A DNA stretch of 64,000 nt from Escherichia coli (GTDB taxonomy: Bacteria; Pseudomonadota; Gammaproteobacteria; Enterobacterales; Enterobacteriaceae), in NCBI RefSeq assembly GCF_001677475.2, contig NZ_CP015229.1. One strand, given 5' to 3'. Positions 46,717-62,855 of the stretch are shown here, in pieces. The position numbers and the translations under genes were made by a program. The notes below the pieces were generated by a model. That model was not told the DNA's origin and made no database searches. It was given only the letters and a program-made list of their open reading frames with translations. Each line of letters starts with the position of its first letter. Positions within the stretch are counted from its first letter, which is position 1.

Positions 46717-46845
46717 GAAAGTAACATCACGCCGTAACAACAGTGCAGTCTGTCCTGATTTTTTTAGTAACCAAATGAAAGAAAAAGATTTTTTCTTGTT
46801 CGTCGTTTTTGTTTTTTCTGGATGGTTCTGGCTGTTTTCATCATT

Positions 46846-46867
46846 TGTGTATTGCACTGTGTATTGC
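46846..46867. repeat. Tandem GTGTATTGC repeats near satellite left end
   Basis: tgtgtattgcactgtgtattgc; near-identical copy at 62023-62043. Confidence 0.6.
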
Positions 46868-46887
46868 AAAAACGGGTTATAAATCAC

Positions 46888-48111
46888 ATGGCGCTAAACA
46901 AACTGAGCGATAAAAAACTTCGTTCCCTGCTTGGACGCAGGAGTGAGAGACAGGAAACCATCGCTGATGGTAACGGGCTTTCGGTACGGGTCAGTAAATA
47001 CGGATGTGTTAGTTTTGTTTTCTTTTACAGACTGGCGGGAAGGGGAACCGCGCCCATCTGGCTGACACTTGGAAAATATCCTGATCTGAGTCTCAAATCA
47101 GCGAGAGAGATGCGCGATCAGTGTCGAACCTGGCTTGCGGAGGGCAGAGATCCACGGATTCAGATAAAAATTGAACGGGAAGCCACCTTGCAACCTGTTA
47201 CCGTTCGTGAGGCACTTGAATACTGGCTTGATAATTATGCAATGGATAAGCGTAGGGGAGCAGAACATATCAGGCAGTGCTTTGGTAAACATATTTATCC
47301 GGTGATTGGTCATGTACCACTTAGTGATTGCTCTATATCTATGTGGATTAAGTGTTTTGACAAAATAAAAAAAGTAGCACCTGTACAGGCCGGAGCTTTG
47401 TTGCGTATATCAAAACAGGCGCTTAAATTTTGTAGGGTAAGAAAATACGCGATTAGTCATGAAATTGATGATCTTGAGGTCTGTGATGTGGGAAAAAAGT
47501 CTGCGCGAAGAAGCAGGGTTTTAACAGATGATGAAATCAGAGATTTATGGCGAAGTATTAATACTGATTATGACAATCACGAATTATCATATGAAAACCG
47601 AATTATTTTACGTTTCCTGGTAGTTTTTGGTTGCCGACTGTCAGAAGTATTACTGTCGTCCTGGGGAGAGTGGGATTTTGATAAGAAATTATGGCGCGTT
47701 CCCGCTGAACATAGCAAAAATGGCAGGGAAATAATCAGACCGATTCCTGATGGCATGTTTAACTGGTTAGTTACGTTAAAAAAAATAACAGGTAACAAAG
47801 AAAATGTGATTGGGTTTGATATGCGTCAGTGTACGGCAAGCGTAACTATCGGTAAGACATGGAAAAGGATGAAACACTCGGAGAAATGGACGGCGCATGA
47901 TATGCGAAGAGTGTTTGCCACAAAACTAAGTGATCATGGTTTTGAACATAATGTGGTTGAACAGTTGCTTGGGCACACATTAGGCGGTGTTGCCGGGGTT
48001 TATAACAGAAGCCAGTATATGGACAGAAAAAAAGAAGCTATGAACTGGTGGTACGACTATCTGAATAAGCAAATTAGTGGTGACGGTAATGATTCAAATA
48101 GTTACGCGTGA
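46888..48111 (+). CDS. int: P4-type tyrosine integrase
   Basis: 407 aa from MALNKLSDKKLRSLLGRR..GLSVRVSKYG (typical P4-family N-terminus); HDMRRVFAT...LGH...Y. Confidence 0.85.
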   Translation: MALNKLSDKKLRSLLGRRSERQETIADGNGLSVRVSKYGCVSFVFFYRLAGRGTAPIWLTLGKYPDLSLKSAREMRDQCRTWLAEGRDPRIQIKIEREATLQPVTVREALEYWLDNYAMDKRRGAEHIRQCFGKHIYPVIGHVPLSDCSISMWIKCFDKIKKVAPVQAGALLRISKQALKFCRVRKYAISHEIDDLEVCDVGKKSARRSRVLTDDEIRDLWRSINTDYDNHELSYENRIILRFLVVFGCRLSEVLLSSWGEWDFDKKLWRVPAEHSKNGREIIRPIPDGMFNWLVTLKKITGNKENVIGFDMRQCTASVTIGKTWKRMKHSEKWTAHDMRRVFATKLSDHGFEHNVVEQLLGHTLGGVAGVYNRSQYMDRKKEAMNWWYDYLNKQISGDGNDSNSYA

Positions 48112-48142
48112 AGAACTTGAAAATGATAAAACAATCGACAGG

Positions 48143-48310
48143 ATGATTAAGGAAGATGAATGTGCATGGTTAACCGCTCTTGGCAGGAGACACAGATCGT
48201 TACTTGAAAAGGAAGGAAAATTTCCACGAAAAATATGTATTGGTCCACAAACAAAAGTCTGGCGCTTATCTGAGGTGCTGGAATGGGTAAAAGGTGAATG
48301 GAAACCCTGA
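48143..48310 (+). CDS. AlpA-family DNA-binding protein, copy 1
   Basis: ORF 48077-48310; start at the internal Met (MIKEDECAWLTALG...); LSEVLEWV. Confidence 0.6.
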   Translation: MIKEDECAWLTALGRRHRSLLEKEGKFPRKICIGPQTKVWRLSEVLEWVKGEWKP

Positions 48311-48333: not shown

Positions 48334-48357
48334 AACCCGTCTTTTGGCGGGTTTTTT
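48334..48357 (+). terminator. Intrinsic terminator
   Basis: aacccgtcttttggcgggttttttt. Confidence 0.6.
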
Positions 48358-48373
48358 TATAGGTGATATTTTT

Positions 48374-48652
48374 ATGCAAAAATTTATTTATCCTACACCC
48401 GAAGAACGCATTCAGATTCTGAAAGATCATGGCGAACCGTATGATCGCCGTATACGCGAACATGAGTGTGCCAATCGTACCGGGCTTTCAAGAAGCAGAC
48501 GTTGGGTACTTGAACAGGAGGGAGCATTTCCTGCTCGTGCTCATTTAGGGAAAGTGTCTGTTTCCTGGTTGCTCTCTGATGTGCTCTGGTGGGTTATGCA
48601 TCCGCCAGGAGTAAAGGAAGTAAACAGCCCATACAAAAACGCCAATAAGTAA
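48374..48652 (+). CDS. AlpA-family DNA-binding protein, copy 2
   Basis: From MQKFIYPTPEER; ECANRTGLSRSRRWVLEQEGAFPA. Confidence 0.6.
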   Translation: MQKFIYPTPEERIQILKDHGEPYDRRIREHECANRTGLSRSRRWVLEQEGAFPARAHLGKVSVSWLLSDVLWWVMHPPGVKEVNSPYKNANK

Positions 48653-48706: not shown

Positions 48707-49303
48707 GTGATGAATAAAAATATTGCCGTGACGGGCAAGGGTGACGCACGTCATGTGAAAAAATTCTGTGATATTCGTGATCTGGTCGTTCTGCGCTTTG
48801 ATAGTGTGAACGTTCGCGTGGTGTATCTGAACGGCGATCCGTGGTTTGTTGGCGCTGATGTGTGTGCGGCGCTGGAAATTAGCAACGTTACCGATGCTGT
48901 TTCAGTTCTGGATAACGATGAGGTAATGACCCTAGCTTTAACCGAGGGTCATTCAGGTAAGCGTGGTGGTGCCAGAAGTTGGAATGTTGTATCAGAATCA
49001 GGTTTTTACAAGTTGATCGCCAGAAGTCGCAAAGCTGTTAATCCTGGCACGTTCGCCCATCGTTTCAGTAATTGGGTATTCAGAAATGTGATACCGGGTA
49101 TCAGAAAAACGGGGGCTTATGGTATCCCGTGGGGCGCATTACAGGATTTTTCCCGCCGCAAAGAGCAATATCAGGTAAGTGCCAGCGAGAAGGGGAGGGA
49201 GCTACAGGCATGTAAGCGCAAAAAGCGTGAGCTAGAGGAAGAAGAAAAAAGGCTGATACGTGAATATCAGCCTGAGTTTTACTTTGGTGAGCGTATTCAG
49301 TAA
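48707..49303 (+). CDS. Bro-N domain protein (antirepressor-like)
   Basis: 198 aa; N-terminal ...VYLNGDPWFVGADVCAALEISNVTDAVSVLDNDE. Confidence 0.6.
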   Translation: MMNKNIAVTGKGDARHVKKFCDIRDLVVLRFDSVNVRVVYLNGDPWFVGADVCAALEISNVTDAVSVLDNDEVMTLALTEGHSGKRGGARSWNVVSESGFYKLIARSRKAVNPGTFAHRFSNWVFRNVIPGIRKTGAYGIPWGALQDFSRRKEQYQVSASEKGRELQACKRKKRELEEEEKRLIREYQPEFYFGERIQ

Positions 49304-49915
49304 CCACACGCGGTGCTGATTATACGGTACATCGTGTTAACCGAGAAGCTACCCACCAGCAAGGCAAAATCTTCTGCTAAAAAATGACATATGGCCAGTC
49401 GTCTGGAAAGCATGAAATTTTACAAAAATGGAAAATGAAGATTTTTATTGTGCTGGTGGGTAAAAACAAAAAGCGCCCCGTTGCCGGAGCGCCCTTGCGA
49501 ACAATTAACCTACTGCGCAAAAAAATGAATCTGTGCAGGGGGATTATATCAACCGTGTGACGAAGCGCCACAATTGCCGGATAACAGGCAAAGAAAAGGC
49601 CACCCGCTACGGTGGCCCTTCGACACAAGCTACACGTTATCCCCAACGCATGAGCGTCGCCAACAATGCCACATTTGCGGCTGGTGGGCAATGTGATCAG
49701 TGTGCTGGCTTGCTGGTGGGCTATTCCTGCTCTTTGGCCTTGCGTTGCTTTAGTGCTGCACGAGCTAATCAATCATTGTATATGAGGCGTGGAATCTTTT
49801 TTTCATCACTCCTGCATACACGCTCATTACTGACGTGTTCATTGCTGATGCAATTTCCCAGGAGGAAAGCAAATAAAAACAAAGAGCCAAGCCAGTATAG
49901 TACTTGCTGCATAAG

Positions 49916-50101
49916 TTATTCCTTATCTGATTCTTTGGTTTTTTTCCGTTGGCGGCGTTTGATCTCGCCACGCATGGCTGCGCTTATAAACTGCCCTGTA
50001 CTTTCGCCATCTTCTTTCACGTTTTCCATGCCTTCAATAATTTCATGGGCAATACGTGCAGTTACAGATTGTGATTTTGCATTCTTTGGACCTGTTGCCA
50101 T
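49916..50101 (-). CDS. Small putative ribbon-helix-helix regulator
   Basis: 61 aa from MATGPKNAKSQSVTARIAHEIIEG; GAGGGG RBS; divergent from rightward operon. Confidence 0.4.
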   Translation of the reverse strand: MATGPKNAKSQSVTARIAHEIIEGMENVKEDGESTGQFISAAMRGEIKRRQRKKTKESDKE

Positions 50102-50122
50102 GTCTAACCCCTCATGTTTTTG

Positions 50123-50204
50123 GTGTAAGACAATATACACGAAAAAAAACTATTTTAAAGGGTTGACGTGTAAGACACTGTTGTTTTATGTTGTGTCTTA
50201 CACC
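50123..50204. promoter_or_regulatory. Candidate operator array: three GTGTAAGACA(C) sites
   Basis: Sites at 50123-50132, 50168-50178 and inverted 50194-50204 (11-bp palindrome, 15-bp spacer) overlapping a TTGACG -35-like hexamer. Confidence 0.5.
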
Positions 50205-50300
50205 TTGAGTGTTCAAGGTTCAGAAACTGCGAAGCCCGTAGGTGCCGCTAACACCCACAGGCTTCTAACCACCAACGATAGTAATAGTATCGAGGCAGCT

Positions 50301-50504
50301 ATGAGAAATCATACCACACACCCGCAAGGGCGGGACTCGCACAACCTGAATAAATACATCTGGCGTTTTATCGCCCTGAGCACGGCACAACCGCGCGTAA
50401 TTCACATCGTGGCCACCAGCGAACAGGAAGCGCGTCAGCAATCTCCTGATGGCTGCGTGATGGTATTCGCCGCCCGTATTCGTCAGGGGTCACATCATGC
50501 GTAA
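50301..50504 (+). CDS. Small Icd-like/Ash-family-like protein, copy 1 (tentative)
   Basis: C-terminal WRF...ATSEQEARQQ...VFAARIRQG motif shared with the next ORF. Confidence 0.35.
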   Translation: MRNHTTHPQGRDSHNLNKYIWRFIALSTAQPRVIHIVATSEQEARQQSPDGCVMVFAARIRQGSHHA

Positions 50505-50790
50505 AAACCGCTTGCAAAAAATTATCACGGGACTGTATGCTTCCCGCGTCACCCACATGGTGACCGGGTTTGACAGCCTGAATACTACAGCGGACAGCCG
50601 CTTACATTCCGATATGCGGTTTTTTTGTGTCCGTAAACCTACCCATACCCGCATTATGGCGGGGCGTAACGGGGGAGCCTTTGCGCTCGCTGGTTCCTGT
50701 AGTGCCAGTCTGTCAACCCTGTTACGTCTCGCCACCATGTTTGACAGCGTAGTAGCGAGACTCCTTAATTTCACTACAGGAGCCTTTCAC

Positions 50791-62118: not shown

Positions 62119-62855
62119 TCACGAAACACATGAATGTGTGGGTCACTGCCGAATCGGCCTGGATGGACATGATTAAGTGGGAGAAGTGCGAATACATCGC
62201 TCCACAGCATGAGCTGAAAACGTATCCCATGTGGGTCGGCGTCGACCTTGCACATAAGATTGATATCTGTGCGGCGGCAAAACTCTGGCGAACGGATAAC
62301 GGGCATGTTCATGCCGATTTTAAATTCTGGCTTCCGGAAGGGCGACTGGAACGGTGTTCACGGCAGCAGGCAGAACTTTACCGGAAGTGGGCGGAGATGG
62401 ATAAGCTCATCCTGACGGATGGTGATGTTATCGATCATGCTCAGATAAAAAGTGACTTACTGGAATGGATTGGTGGTGAAAACCTCAGGGAACTGGGATT
62501 TGACCCGTGGAGCGCGATGCAGTTCAGCCTGGCACTGGCTGAAGAAGGGATACCGCTGGTGGAGGTTCCGCAGACGGTCCGCAATCTGTCAGAGGCCATG
62601 AAGGAAACGGAATCACTGGTCTATGCCGGACGTTTCCACCACAGCAATCACCCGGTCATGAACTGGATGATGTCTAACGTTACGGTGAAACCGGACAAAA
62701 ACGACAATATCTTCCCGAATAAATCCACGCCGGAAGCCAAAATCGACGGCCCTGTTGCGATGTTTACAGCAATGAGCCGGATGCTGGTCAATGGCGGTGA
62801 ACCGGAGCCGGATCTGTCTGAACACCTGATCAGTGTTGGTATCCGCTCGCTTTAA
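62119..62855 (+). pseudogene. Prophage terminase large subunit, C-terminal ~245 codons (resumes after satellite)
   Basis: LTKHMNVWVTAESAWM aligns with satellite TerL LTKRFNIWCQGATPWM. Confidence 0.8.

Follow-up and report, generated by a model that had tools for sequence, protein, structure and literature searches.

We analyzed a 64,000-nucleotide stretch of Escherichia coli DNA (contig NZ_CP015229.1; referred to as the window) that carries a satellite of the phage-inducible chromosomal island (PICI) type. In this satellite, a small gene of the YlcI/YnfO family (here ylcI) lies on the minus strand, divergent from an operon that begins with an Icd-like gene and encodes a primase, and three copies of a short box lie between them. 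Our best reading, drawn from comparative sequence analysis, is that the 61-amino-acid (61-aa) product of ylcI acts as an autoregulated repressor of the icd-primase operon and that its specificity is carried on an immunity-type cassette. We consider it probable that the protein binds the boxes and regulates both promoters. That it would also be the master maintenance repressor of the satellite is a tentative proposal, toward which we lean slightly less than toward its negation. A previous sequence-only reading of the window had suggested a repressor-operator switch at this place. The comparative and structural evidence presented below supports that idea, and from it we infer both binding and repression.

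Three boxes overlap two divergent promoter-like elements

The three sites that had been reported in the intergenic region were readily found again. Indeed, the 10-mer GTGTAAGACA occurs exactly three times in the 64-kb window, at 50123-50132 (+), 50168-50177 (+), and 50194-50203 (-), the three copies together spanning 81 bp (50123-50203). Elsewhere in the window there are three one-mismatch matches to it, all of them distant, and within the satellite no additional site with at most one mismatch to the 11-mer box was found. Copies 2 and 3 form an inverted repeat with arms of 11 nt each (50168-50178 and 50193-50203). The arms are 100% complementary, as in the perfect 11-bp palindrome described previously, but the gap between them measures 14 nt and not the 15 bp given at that time. 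Including its flanks, the third box reads GGTGT-AAG-ACACC, an imperfect palindrome of 13 bp. A consensus scan further placed two promoter-like pairs back to back in this interval, so that genes, boxes, and candidate promoters are arranged as follows.

49916-50101, minus strand: ylcI-like gene (ATG at 50101, stop codon at 49916-49918) for a 61-aa predicted ribbon-helix-helix (RHH) protein (MATGPKNAKSQSVTARIAHEI...), the proposed repressor
50123-50133, plus strand: box O1 (GTGTAAGACAA), directly downstream of the leftward -10 and over the expected ylcI transcription start
50132-50159, minus strand: candidate leftward promoter P_L for ylcI, with -35 TTTAAA (50159-50154), a spacer of 16 nt, and -10 TATATT (50137-50132)
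50163-50192, plus strand: candidate rightward promoter P_R for the icd-primase operon, with -35 TTGACG (50163-50168), a spacer of 18 nt, and -10 TATGTT (50187-50192)
50168-50178, plus strand: box O2 (GTGTAAGACAC), in the first half of the P_R spacer, with one base in common with the -35
50193-50203, minus strand: box O3 (GTGTAAGACAC on the minus strand), abutting the P_R -10 and over the expected start site
50301-50504, plus strand: icd1, an Icd-like open reading frame (ORF) of 67 aa (NCBIfam NF033153, 71.8 bits), the first gene of the rightward operon

The P_L -10 abuts O1, which we propose to be an autoregulatory operator. The single base shared by TTGACG and O2 is in agreement with the overlap of a -35-like hexamer noted in the earlier reading. 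P_R looks strong and constitutive, judging from its TTGACG/TTGACA hexamer and the good -10 hexamers that accompany it.

The three-box layout is conserved from Escherichia to Serratia

To the window we compared 48 loci obtained by scanning one genome per species, which span relatives of Escherichia as well as Xenorhabdus, Proteus, Yersinia, Pectobacterium, and Serratia, and we added the locus of EcCICFT073, the prototype Gram-negative PICI. Three boxes were present at matching offsets upstream of the ylcI homologue in 48/48 genome loci and in EcCICFT073. In all 50 loci, the distance between box 1 and the start codon is 24 to 26 nt; box 2 follows ∼45 nt past box 1 (a few loci are off by a few bases) and abuts an invariant TTGA; box 3 lies 20 to 39 nt past box 2. 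The first 80 nt are nearly indel-free. The boxes have the general form GTG-N5-CA(C) and, together with their flanks, are imperfect 13-bp palindromes that agree with one another at 9.3 of 10 positions within a locus. The two best matches to box 1 showed a mean of 1.44 mismatches per 20 positions (50 loci), compared to 7.63 in shuffled spacers, where the minimum over 2000 shuffles was 3 mismatches and the observed median was never reached. Since the boxes of the relatives match far better than shuffled spacers, a chance origin is excluded.

Apart from the boxes, strong conservation was limited to the leftward -10 (TATACT) and to TTGA of the rightward -35. The latter was found in 49/49 sequences, at a fixed offset in 45 and one base off in 4, and was followed in nearly all of them by a TAnnnT hexamer 17 to 18 nt to its 3' side. 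The P_L -10, mostly TATACT, is at least 90% conserved among 43 unique sequences from many genera, and the P_L -35 is weak and T-rich. Such conservation would be the pattern expected of functional promoters. Several boxes thus overlap divergent promoters, defined here by consensus matches conserved across genera, and one of these promoters is that of ylcI itself, as would be the case in an immunity cassette. Loci differ in whether box 3 is inverted or direct, even inside one specificity class, which suggests that each box is bound independently by one dimer.

Box cores track the predicted beta-strand of the protein

The five central bases of the box (the core) are the same within a locus, differ between loci, and track residues 12 to 15 of the protein, which belong to the predicted beta-strand and read SVTA in the window. 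We distinguished 20 beta-strand classes and 15 distinct cores, including the following.

SVTA, SVTV, SITV: core TAAGA
MTTV: core TAT(G/T)T
QLNA: core CGATT
KMSA: core GGTGC
QIVS: core GCATT
QVNV: core CTATT
Q(V/L)SV: core GTGTT
KLEA: core GC(T/A)GA
Box sequences: GTGTAAGACAC for SVTA (window), with GTGTATTTCAC and GTGCGATTCAC as the MTTV and QLNA counterparts

Loci with the same residues 12 to 15 had the same core (at most one mismatch) in 153/153 locus pairs. Conversely, when these residues differed, the core was not shared in 955/975 pairs. A permutation test of the association between residues and core gave p ≤ 2e-4.

In five loci from Xenorhabdus and Proteus (L040, L041, L043, L046, and L047), the N-terminal arm MATGxKNAKS... 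is replaced by MTRDNVNNKS..., and the box flanks GGTG...CACC have become ACTGG...CCAGT. This is an apparent second layer of covariation between protein and DNA.

Covariation of this kind also bears on the possibility that another factor (AlpA, Icd, or a helper or host protein) binds the repeats, or that they are chance or structural features, the small ORF being unrelated to them. AlpA is a DNA-binding activator encoded nearby, and the PHROG label of the Icd-like families is "transcriptional repressor." However, without exception the core goes with the beta-strand of the 61-aa protein, independently of Icd identity and of the flanks. None of the 33 pairs with Icd proteins at least 80% identical and different beta-strands shared a core; L041 and L048, for instance, have 100% identical Icd proteins and the cores GGTGC and CGATT, respectively. 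Among the 113 pairs with Icd proteins less than 50% identical and the same beta-strand, all shared the core. On the basis of this decoupling, we ruled out that Icd binds the boxes. No host factor could account for 15 different cores, and chance is excluded by the shuffled spacers. We regard binding by another factor as hardly credible.

The gene and its boxes are exchanged as one cassette

We then compared closely related loci with different cores. In L041 and L048, sliding-window identity was 97 to 100% from ∼-410 to -200 and again from +190 to ∼+490. Between ∼-200 and +190, a segment that holds ylcI, the boxes, and part of the leader, it was mostly 44 to 80%. L022 and L037 showed the same exchange pattern: their right flank is 94% identical for 3.9 kb, including the replication genes, and their cores differ. 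In L012 and L033, the diverged block extends from ylcI codon 43 to just beyond box 3. As judged from these alignments, the DNA-binding part of ylcI and the boxes travel as one exchangeable cassette, like the immunity regions of lambdoid phages. Repressor and operators would thus change specificity together and be exchanged as a unit. Along with the identity of the boxes within each locus, this exchange pattern is hard to explain unless the 61-aa protein reads the boxes.

The same comparison argues against a non-transcriptional role of the boxes, be it as a centromere-like or partition site (of the ParG/omega type), as replication iterons, or as a recombination-directionality site. The varying orientation of the boxes between loci would be compatible with such a role, and the structural matches described below include Omega, a partition and copy-control RHH protein that recognizes short repeats whichever way they are oriented. 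Nevertheless, L022 and L037 show that cores and replication genes are decoupled, the boxes keep fixed positions relative to the conserved -35 and -10 in all loci, no ParA-type ATPase is encoded next to them, and PICI origins map downstream of pri (PMC10111431). A role of this sort is very improbable.

The YlcI-like protein is a predicted RHH dimer

The ORF at 49916-50101 (-), divergent from the rightward operon, had been described as encoding an RHH-like protein of 61 aa, and structure prediction agrees with this. The protein matches NCBIfam NF041551 (YlcI/YnfO family) with 65.3 bits against a cutoff of 30 (residues 9-50), and RefSeq names identical and related proteins "YlcI/YnfO family protein." It also matches phrog_949, to which PHROG assigns no function. 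A Shine-Dalgarno sequence, GAGGGG, precedes the gene. The ORF list contained a 74-aa version with a GTG start, which we rejected: its start would fall upstream of the promoter, and almost every homologue has its start at the ATG, with the residues MATG or a close variant of them. A database search returned 109 clusters of homologues, apparently all from Enterobacterales.

The AlphaFold2 monomer has an extended stretch at residues 8 to 18 followed by two helices (predicted local distance difference test score of 84), that is, the strand-helix-helix topology of ∼45 residues found in the RHH superfamily. In the predicted dimer model, two intertwined subunits pair their N-terminal strands as an antiparallel ribbon. 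Single-chain Arc was among the top structural matches of this model, and the Omega repressor was matched as well. Between the helices lies the turn G32-E33-S34-T35, in which E33, S34, and T35 are invariant in 36 homologues. It aligns with the G-R-S of Arc and has the Gly-X-Ser/Thr/Asn signature with which helix B starts in the superfamily. Detectable sequence homology to a curated RHH family was not found, nor were sequence links to solved RHH proteins, and membership therefore relies on the predicted fold. Overall, the 61-aa protein is predicted to adopt a dimeric RHH fold.

The prototype PICI EcCICFT073 carries the same module

EcCICFT073 (NC_004431.1, between roxA and phoQ) has the same ylcI/boxes/icd module, as follows.

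NC_004431.1 1380473-1381052 (L053 25473-26052): ylcI/boxes/icd module of EcCICFT073

The genes of this island are ordered int, helix-turn-helix (AlpA) gene, small ORF, and the minus-strand "YlcI/YnfO family protein" C_RS30120, beyond which lie Icd-like, DUF4222, primase, SSB, PerC, capsid, and decoration genes. The beta-strand of its protein is SQALKARV, and its boxes are O1 GTGGGGGACAG and, in direct orientation, O2 = O3 = GTGGGCCACAC. O2 directly follows the -35 TTGACG, and O3 starts within TATAGT, a hexamer that resembles a -10 and is located 17 nt downstream of this -35. The small genes C_RS30120 and C_RS30125 have late-added locus tags, so the annotation on which the 2018 study relied probably lacked them.

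That founding paper termed the repressor of Gram-negative PICIs "unclear" and identified AlpA as an activator whose overexpression alone led to pri- and int-dependent runaway replication of EcCICFT073 (PMC6092414). AlpA is likewise required in the prototype of the capsid-forming PICIs (bioRxiv 10.1101/2022.09.08.507074). This is in good agreement with the statement of the sequence-only reading that E. coli PICIs are usually described as AlpA-activated and that a dedicated small repressor would be an additional layer of control; no repressor is known from the literature. We searched open-access papers and bioRxiv for YlcI/YnfO/DUF3950, for PICI or capsid-forming PICI (cf-PICI) repressors, and for RHH combined with PICI or AlpA, and found no description of this regulator. 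A conserved, specificity-swapping RHH cassette in Gram-negative PICIs, EcCICFT073 included, appears to be undescribed.

AlpA is necessary for induction, and its overexpression is sufficient in EcCICFT073 despite the ylcI module. This could be accommodated if the protein bound the boxes as a homeostatic damper, similar to Cro or to CopG of pMV158, that limits the dosage of early and replication genes after induction, quiescence being due to the absence of AlpA alone. CopG and similar RHH proteins act jointly with an antisense RNA in the control of replication operons, and the element in the window has an antisense RNA as well. Still, we consider a damper unlikely. ylcI is transcribed away from the controlled operon and has its own promoter and operator, which is the layout seen with the maintenance repressors Mnt, CI, and Stl, whereas Cro and CopG sit inside the operon that they regulate. 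Furthermore, the apparently strong and constitutive P_R implies that something must hold it off in the integrated state, and the specificity-swapping cassette pattern is typical of immunity functions.

Points that weigh against a repressor

Several observations speak against the protein being an autoregulated repressor with immunity-type specificity. First, since AlpA overexpression suffices to induce EcCICFT073, the 61-aa protein cannot be an unconditional block. Second, the gene and its boxes are 25 bp apart, and some covariation would be expected from linkage alone; because of this, our argument relies on the concerted identity of the three boxes and on the exchange boundaries. Third, P_L and P_R were assigned from consensus matches only. 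The remaining points concern the fold. A Pfam-A scan of the protein returned only a chance match to SspO (E 0.016) and none to DUF3950, a PDB sequence search with the family profile returned chance matches only, and Foldseek found no match in the PDB for the monomer model, which is probably too small. The dimer model was generated with a tandem linker in AlphaFold2, as a surrogate for a true dimer prediction. The hhalign alignment to Arc had a probability of 5% and was not significant, although it was in the expected register. In this register, residues 10 to 16 fall on Arc 7 to 13 (S10...R16 on M7...R13). The invariant Arg16 is thereby paired with Arg13 of Arc, and residues 12 and 14 are paired with its Gln9 and Asn11. 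Gln9 and Asn11 of Arc contact bases.

Leader RNA, C4-type module, and leftward unit

The regions on either side of the ylcI-icd interval hold the following features.

50231-50292, plus strand: conserved, structured 5' leader of icd, with a hairpin at 50231-50265, the motif TCTAACCACCAA, and a small hairpin at 50276-50292 beside the Shine-Dalgarno sequence
50535-50739, plus strand: C4-type antisense-RNA module, with a1/b1 targets (50535-50584), an isrK-like terminator (50548-50626), and the C4 RNA (50652-50739)
50791 (ATG)-50964, plus strand: second Icd-like ORF, 3' of the C4 RNA
49769-49912, minus strand: 47-aa ORF with a hydrophobic N-terminal half (MQQVLYWLGSLFLFAFLLGNC...), starting 3 nt past the ylcI stop codon, in the same leftward unit
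49496-49469, minus strand: intrinsic terminator that ends the leftward ylcI unit

An Icd-like ORF occupies the position of icd1 in 48/49 sequences. Its leader contains a two-part hairpin (GAAGCCCG..AGGTG / CACC..CAGGCTTC), then the motif TCTAACCAC(C)AA, which loosely resembles boxA, and then the small hairpin, which flanks or presents the Shine-Dalgarno sequence. Compensatory changes were seen in 9 of the 12 predicted pairs when 28 loci were aligned. No Rfam family matches this leader.

The C4-type module, an RNA immunity module of the P1/P4 type that lies just downstream in the same operon, had been overlooked by the sequence-only reading. It matches Rfam RF01695 with 72.3 bits, compared to a gathering score of 45; the matches to RF03163 (42.1 bits) and RF01394 (33.7 bits) are both below gathering. 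A simple scan revealed no separate promoter for the C4 RNA. Matches to C4 and isrK in some PICIs have been noted earlier (PMC10111431). A C4-type module was found in none of the 12 other ylcI loci tested, and thus the RHH cassette would represent the conserved layer and the RNA an accessory layer in this element. From its sequence, the C4 RNA is a putative second control layer on the icd-primase operon, specific to this element variant.

In the leftward unit, the 47-aa ORF is not conserved in other genera and could be cargo co-expressed with the proposed repressor. A block of E. coli DNA similarity begins at ∼49461-49465, adjoining the leftward terminator. This unit is also where a toxin would have to be sought if the 61-aa protein and the small downstream ORF formed a type II toxin-antitoxin pair, with the former as an RHH antitoxin that autoregulates its operon. 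We rejected this reading for lack of a conserved ORF downstream: most of the 48 other loci have no ORF of at least 25 aa at this place and the rest have mutually unrelated ones, and the EcCICFT073 ORF, of 57 aa, is unrelated as well. Furthermore, only one of the three boxes is on the ylcI promoter, the other two being on the divergent one, and the C-terminal extension past the RHH core amounts to one basic helix, with no toxin-binding extension beyond it. We give a toxin-antitoxin pair next to no credence.

Next to the module, a Bro-N protein is encoded, and it had been suggested that this could be an antirepressor. A homologue is located beside the module in only 6/50 loci and none is annotated in EcCICFT073, so we rejected Bro-N as a dedicated partner in the sense of a general feature. 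Between the Bro-N gene and ylcI, no rightward terminator was found.

Host satellite and distribution

The satellite extends over ∼46.8-62.1 kb. It encodes an integrase, two AlpA-like proteins, and the Bro-N protein, followed by the ylcI module and by DUF4222, primase-helicase, SSB, major head, protease, portal, HNH, TerS, and TerL proteins. PHROG matches were obtained for the integrase, for AlpA-like proteins, and for each product from primase-helicase to TerL. Capsid-forming PICIs have such a gene set (PMC10085698; bioRxiv 10.1101/2022.09.08.507074). The element splits a prophage terL into an N-terminal part (45689-∼46750) and a C-terminal part (62130-62855) and is co-oriented with it, and insertion in a prophage terL is the helper-embedded configuration of PMC10111431. 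The element thus has the features of capsid-forming and of helper-embedded PICIs, the absence of tail and lysis genes being judged from the ORF list only. As a side observation, the helper-embedded satellite is here a capsid-forming one, with its own terL. For the att repeat of the embedded satellite, only matches of 10 to 11 nt were found.

The integrase gene (46822-48111, +) is on the strand opposite to ylcI, and the same opposition exists in EcCICFT073. It is followed by two tandem AlpA-like genes (phrog_2790; 48077-48310 and 48344-48652); typical E. coli PICIs have one AlpA gene (PMC11773190). The int-alpA RNA of Rfam was not found in the window and is present in three related loci. The PHROG family phrog_9, "terminase large subunit," matches the integrase (46885-48108) with its profile positions 690-811, in the C-terminal third. 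This suggests that phrog_9 contains terL-integrase chimeric ORFs derived from such satellite insertions, an annotation trap.

By DNA similarity, part of the region 49300-50700 was detected in 1466/5426 complete E. coli genomes, some of the matches covering the icd part only. A tblastn search of 50,697 phage records, which should include P4, revealed no YlcI-like relative, and the helper prophage, when searched for another YlcI-like gene, gave only a spurious match inside a 352-aa ORF.

Discussion

Taking our best reading, an autoregulated repressor with cassette-borne specificity, the switch might operate as follows. One dimer would occupy each box, (G)GTG-N5-CAC(C), of ∼11 to 13 bp. The invariant box ends would be read by the equally invariant Arg16 and N-terminal arm (MATGxKNxKS), and the variable center by beta-strand residues 12 to 15. 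Dimers on O2, in the spacer, and on O3, at the -10/+1 region, would exclude RNA polymerase from P_R, so that the icd-primase early/replication operon stays silent in the integrated satellite. O1, over the start site of P_L, would confer negative autoregulation on the weaker ylcI promoter. Gene and boxes would form a self-contained specificity cassette that is swapped between satellites, as are lambdoid immunity regions. In the element of the window, the C4-type antisense RNA would add a second, post-initiation brake.

Induction could proceed by rightward transcription that AlpA, triggered by the helper, drives antisense through ylcI and into the operon, thereby bypassing P_R and suppressing P_L. 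In the embedded element, late transcription of the helper, antisense through ylcI, may be an alternative source. Antisense read-through could occur because no rightward terminator was detected between Bro-N and ylcI, and it would reconcile a repressor with the sufficiency of AlpA. More broadly, YlcI-type RHH proteins might be the missing master (immunity) repressors of Gram-negative and capsid-forming PICIs, with at least 15 interchangeable specificities that define satellite immunity groups, with AlpA antisense read-through flipping a bistable switch, and with the conserved icd leader as a further, so far undescribed RNA control element. We put forward this larger hypothesis tentatively, and at present we would sooner doubt it than adopt it.

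The field views Gram-negative PICIs as being controlled by the AlpA activator, which leaves the silencing of the replication operon and helper specificity unexplained. If the 61-aa protein is a repressor, the logic of quiescence and induction in these satellites becomes directly testable. An uncharacterized family would gain a function together with a readable recognition pattern (residues 12 to 15 versus the five central bp), and engineered PICIs ("antibacterial drones" and diagnostic platforms) would gain orthogonal repressor-operator pairs.

Comparison with known systems

The namesakes of the family in K-12, YlcI (DLP12) and YnfO (Qin), are DUF3950 proteins that belong to the same NCBIfam family as the window protein. 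K-12 YlcI has a similar RHH-like pattern (RNIRFPNQMIEQI...GSGNFS), and its gene is divergent from its neighbor. In contrast to the window gene, K-12 ylcI is located in the late-end region of a lambdoid prophage, beside cos and nohD, and lacks the upstream GTG-N5-CAC triplet. In addition, the two proteins are not alignable by BLASTP, and the window protein has no Pfam DUF3950 match. We did not retain K-12 ylcI as a model of the module, its upstream region being the cos/nohD region without such boxes. In that locus (L051 4252-4834), ylcI is divergent from nohD across cos, and other short palindromes, ATCAATTA...TAATTGAT and ATGATAATTATTATCAT, are located upstream of it.

Omega of pSM19035 and CopG of pMV158 have the fold predicted for the 61-aa protein, and Omega repeats work in direct or inverted orientation, just as the orientation of the boxes varies here. 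CopG, jointly with an antisense RNA, regulates a replication operon, another likeness to the element in the window. However, Omega and CopG are encoded within, or co-oriented with, the operons that they control and bind contiguous repeats cooperatively, whereas the boxes here are dispersed on two promoters.

Stl/Rpr of the Gram-positive PICIs (the pathogenicity islands of Staphylococcus aureus, or SaPIs) is satellite encoded and divergent from the excision/replication operon (PMC6092414); similarly, the YlcI-like protein is proposed to keep its satellite quiescent until the helper acts. Stl is a larger helix-turn-helix protein that is co-oriented with int and inactivated by binding of a helper protein. 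In our case, a 61-aa RHH protein is encoded divergently from the replication operon and opposite to int, so that the Stl/Rpr-type arrangement, in which the repressor gene is both co-oriented with int and divergent from the xis/replication operon, is found in one of its two parts. Furthermore, unlike with Stl, the satellite also needs the activator AlpA, and there is no evident antirepressor partner.

Satellite P4 has immunity based on the CI RNA, without a protein immunity repressor. In the immI region of P1 and P7 (c4 RNA-icd-ant, with C1 acting at Op51), the first gene is Icd-like, and a C4-family antisense RNA and its upstream targets are in the same transcript, as they are in the window. 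A common logic is apparent, namely, a protein repressor at the operon promoter combined with an RNA brake downstream, but in P1 the promoter repressor C1 is encoded elsewhere and is not an RHH protein.

In the immI region of P22, the RHH repressors Mnt and Arc control Pant. Like Mnt, the protein proposed here would be a small, autoregulated RHH repressor, divergent from the repressed operon, with operators overlapping promoters and with an arm and a beta-ribbon that read DNA. It has no detectable sequence homology to Mnt or Arc. Mnt and Arc bind one operator as tetramers, while the window has three separate boxes, 25 and 45 bp apart and of variable orientation, and the P22 operon is phage borne and encodes an antirepressor, in place of the Icd protein and primase of the satellite. 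The proposed type of mechanism, an RHH repressor with operators on divergent promoters, is a classical one, and its nearest analogue is P22 Mnt/Arc.

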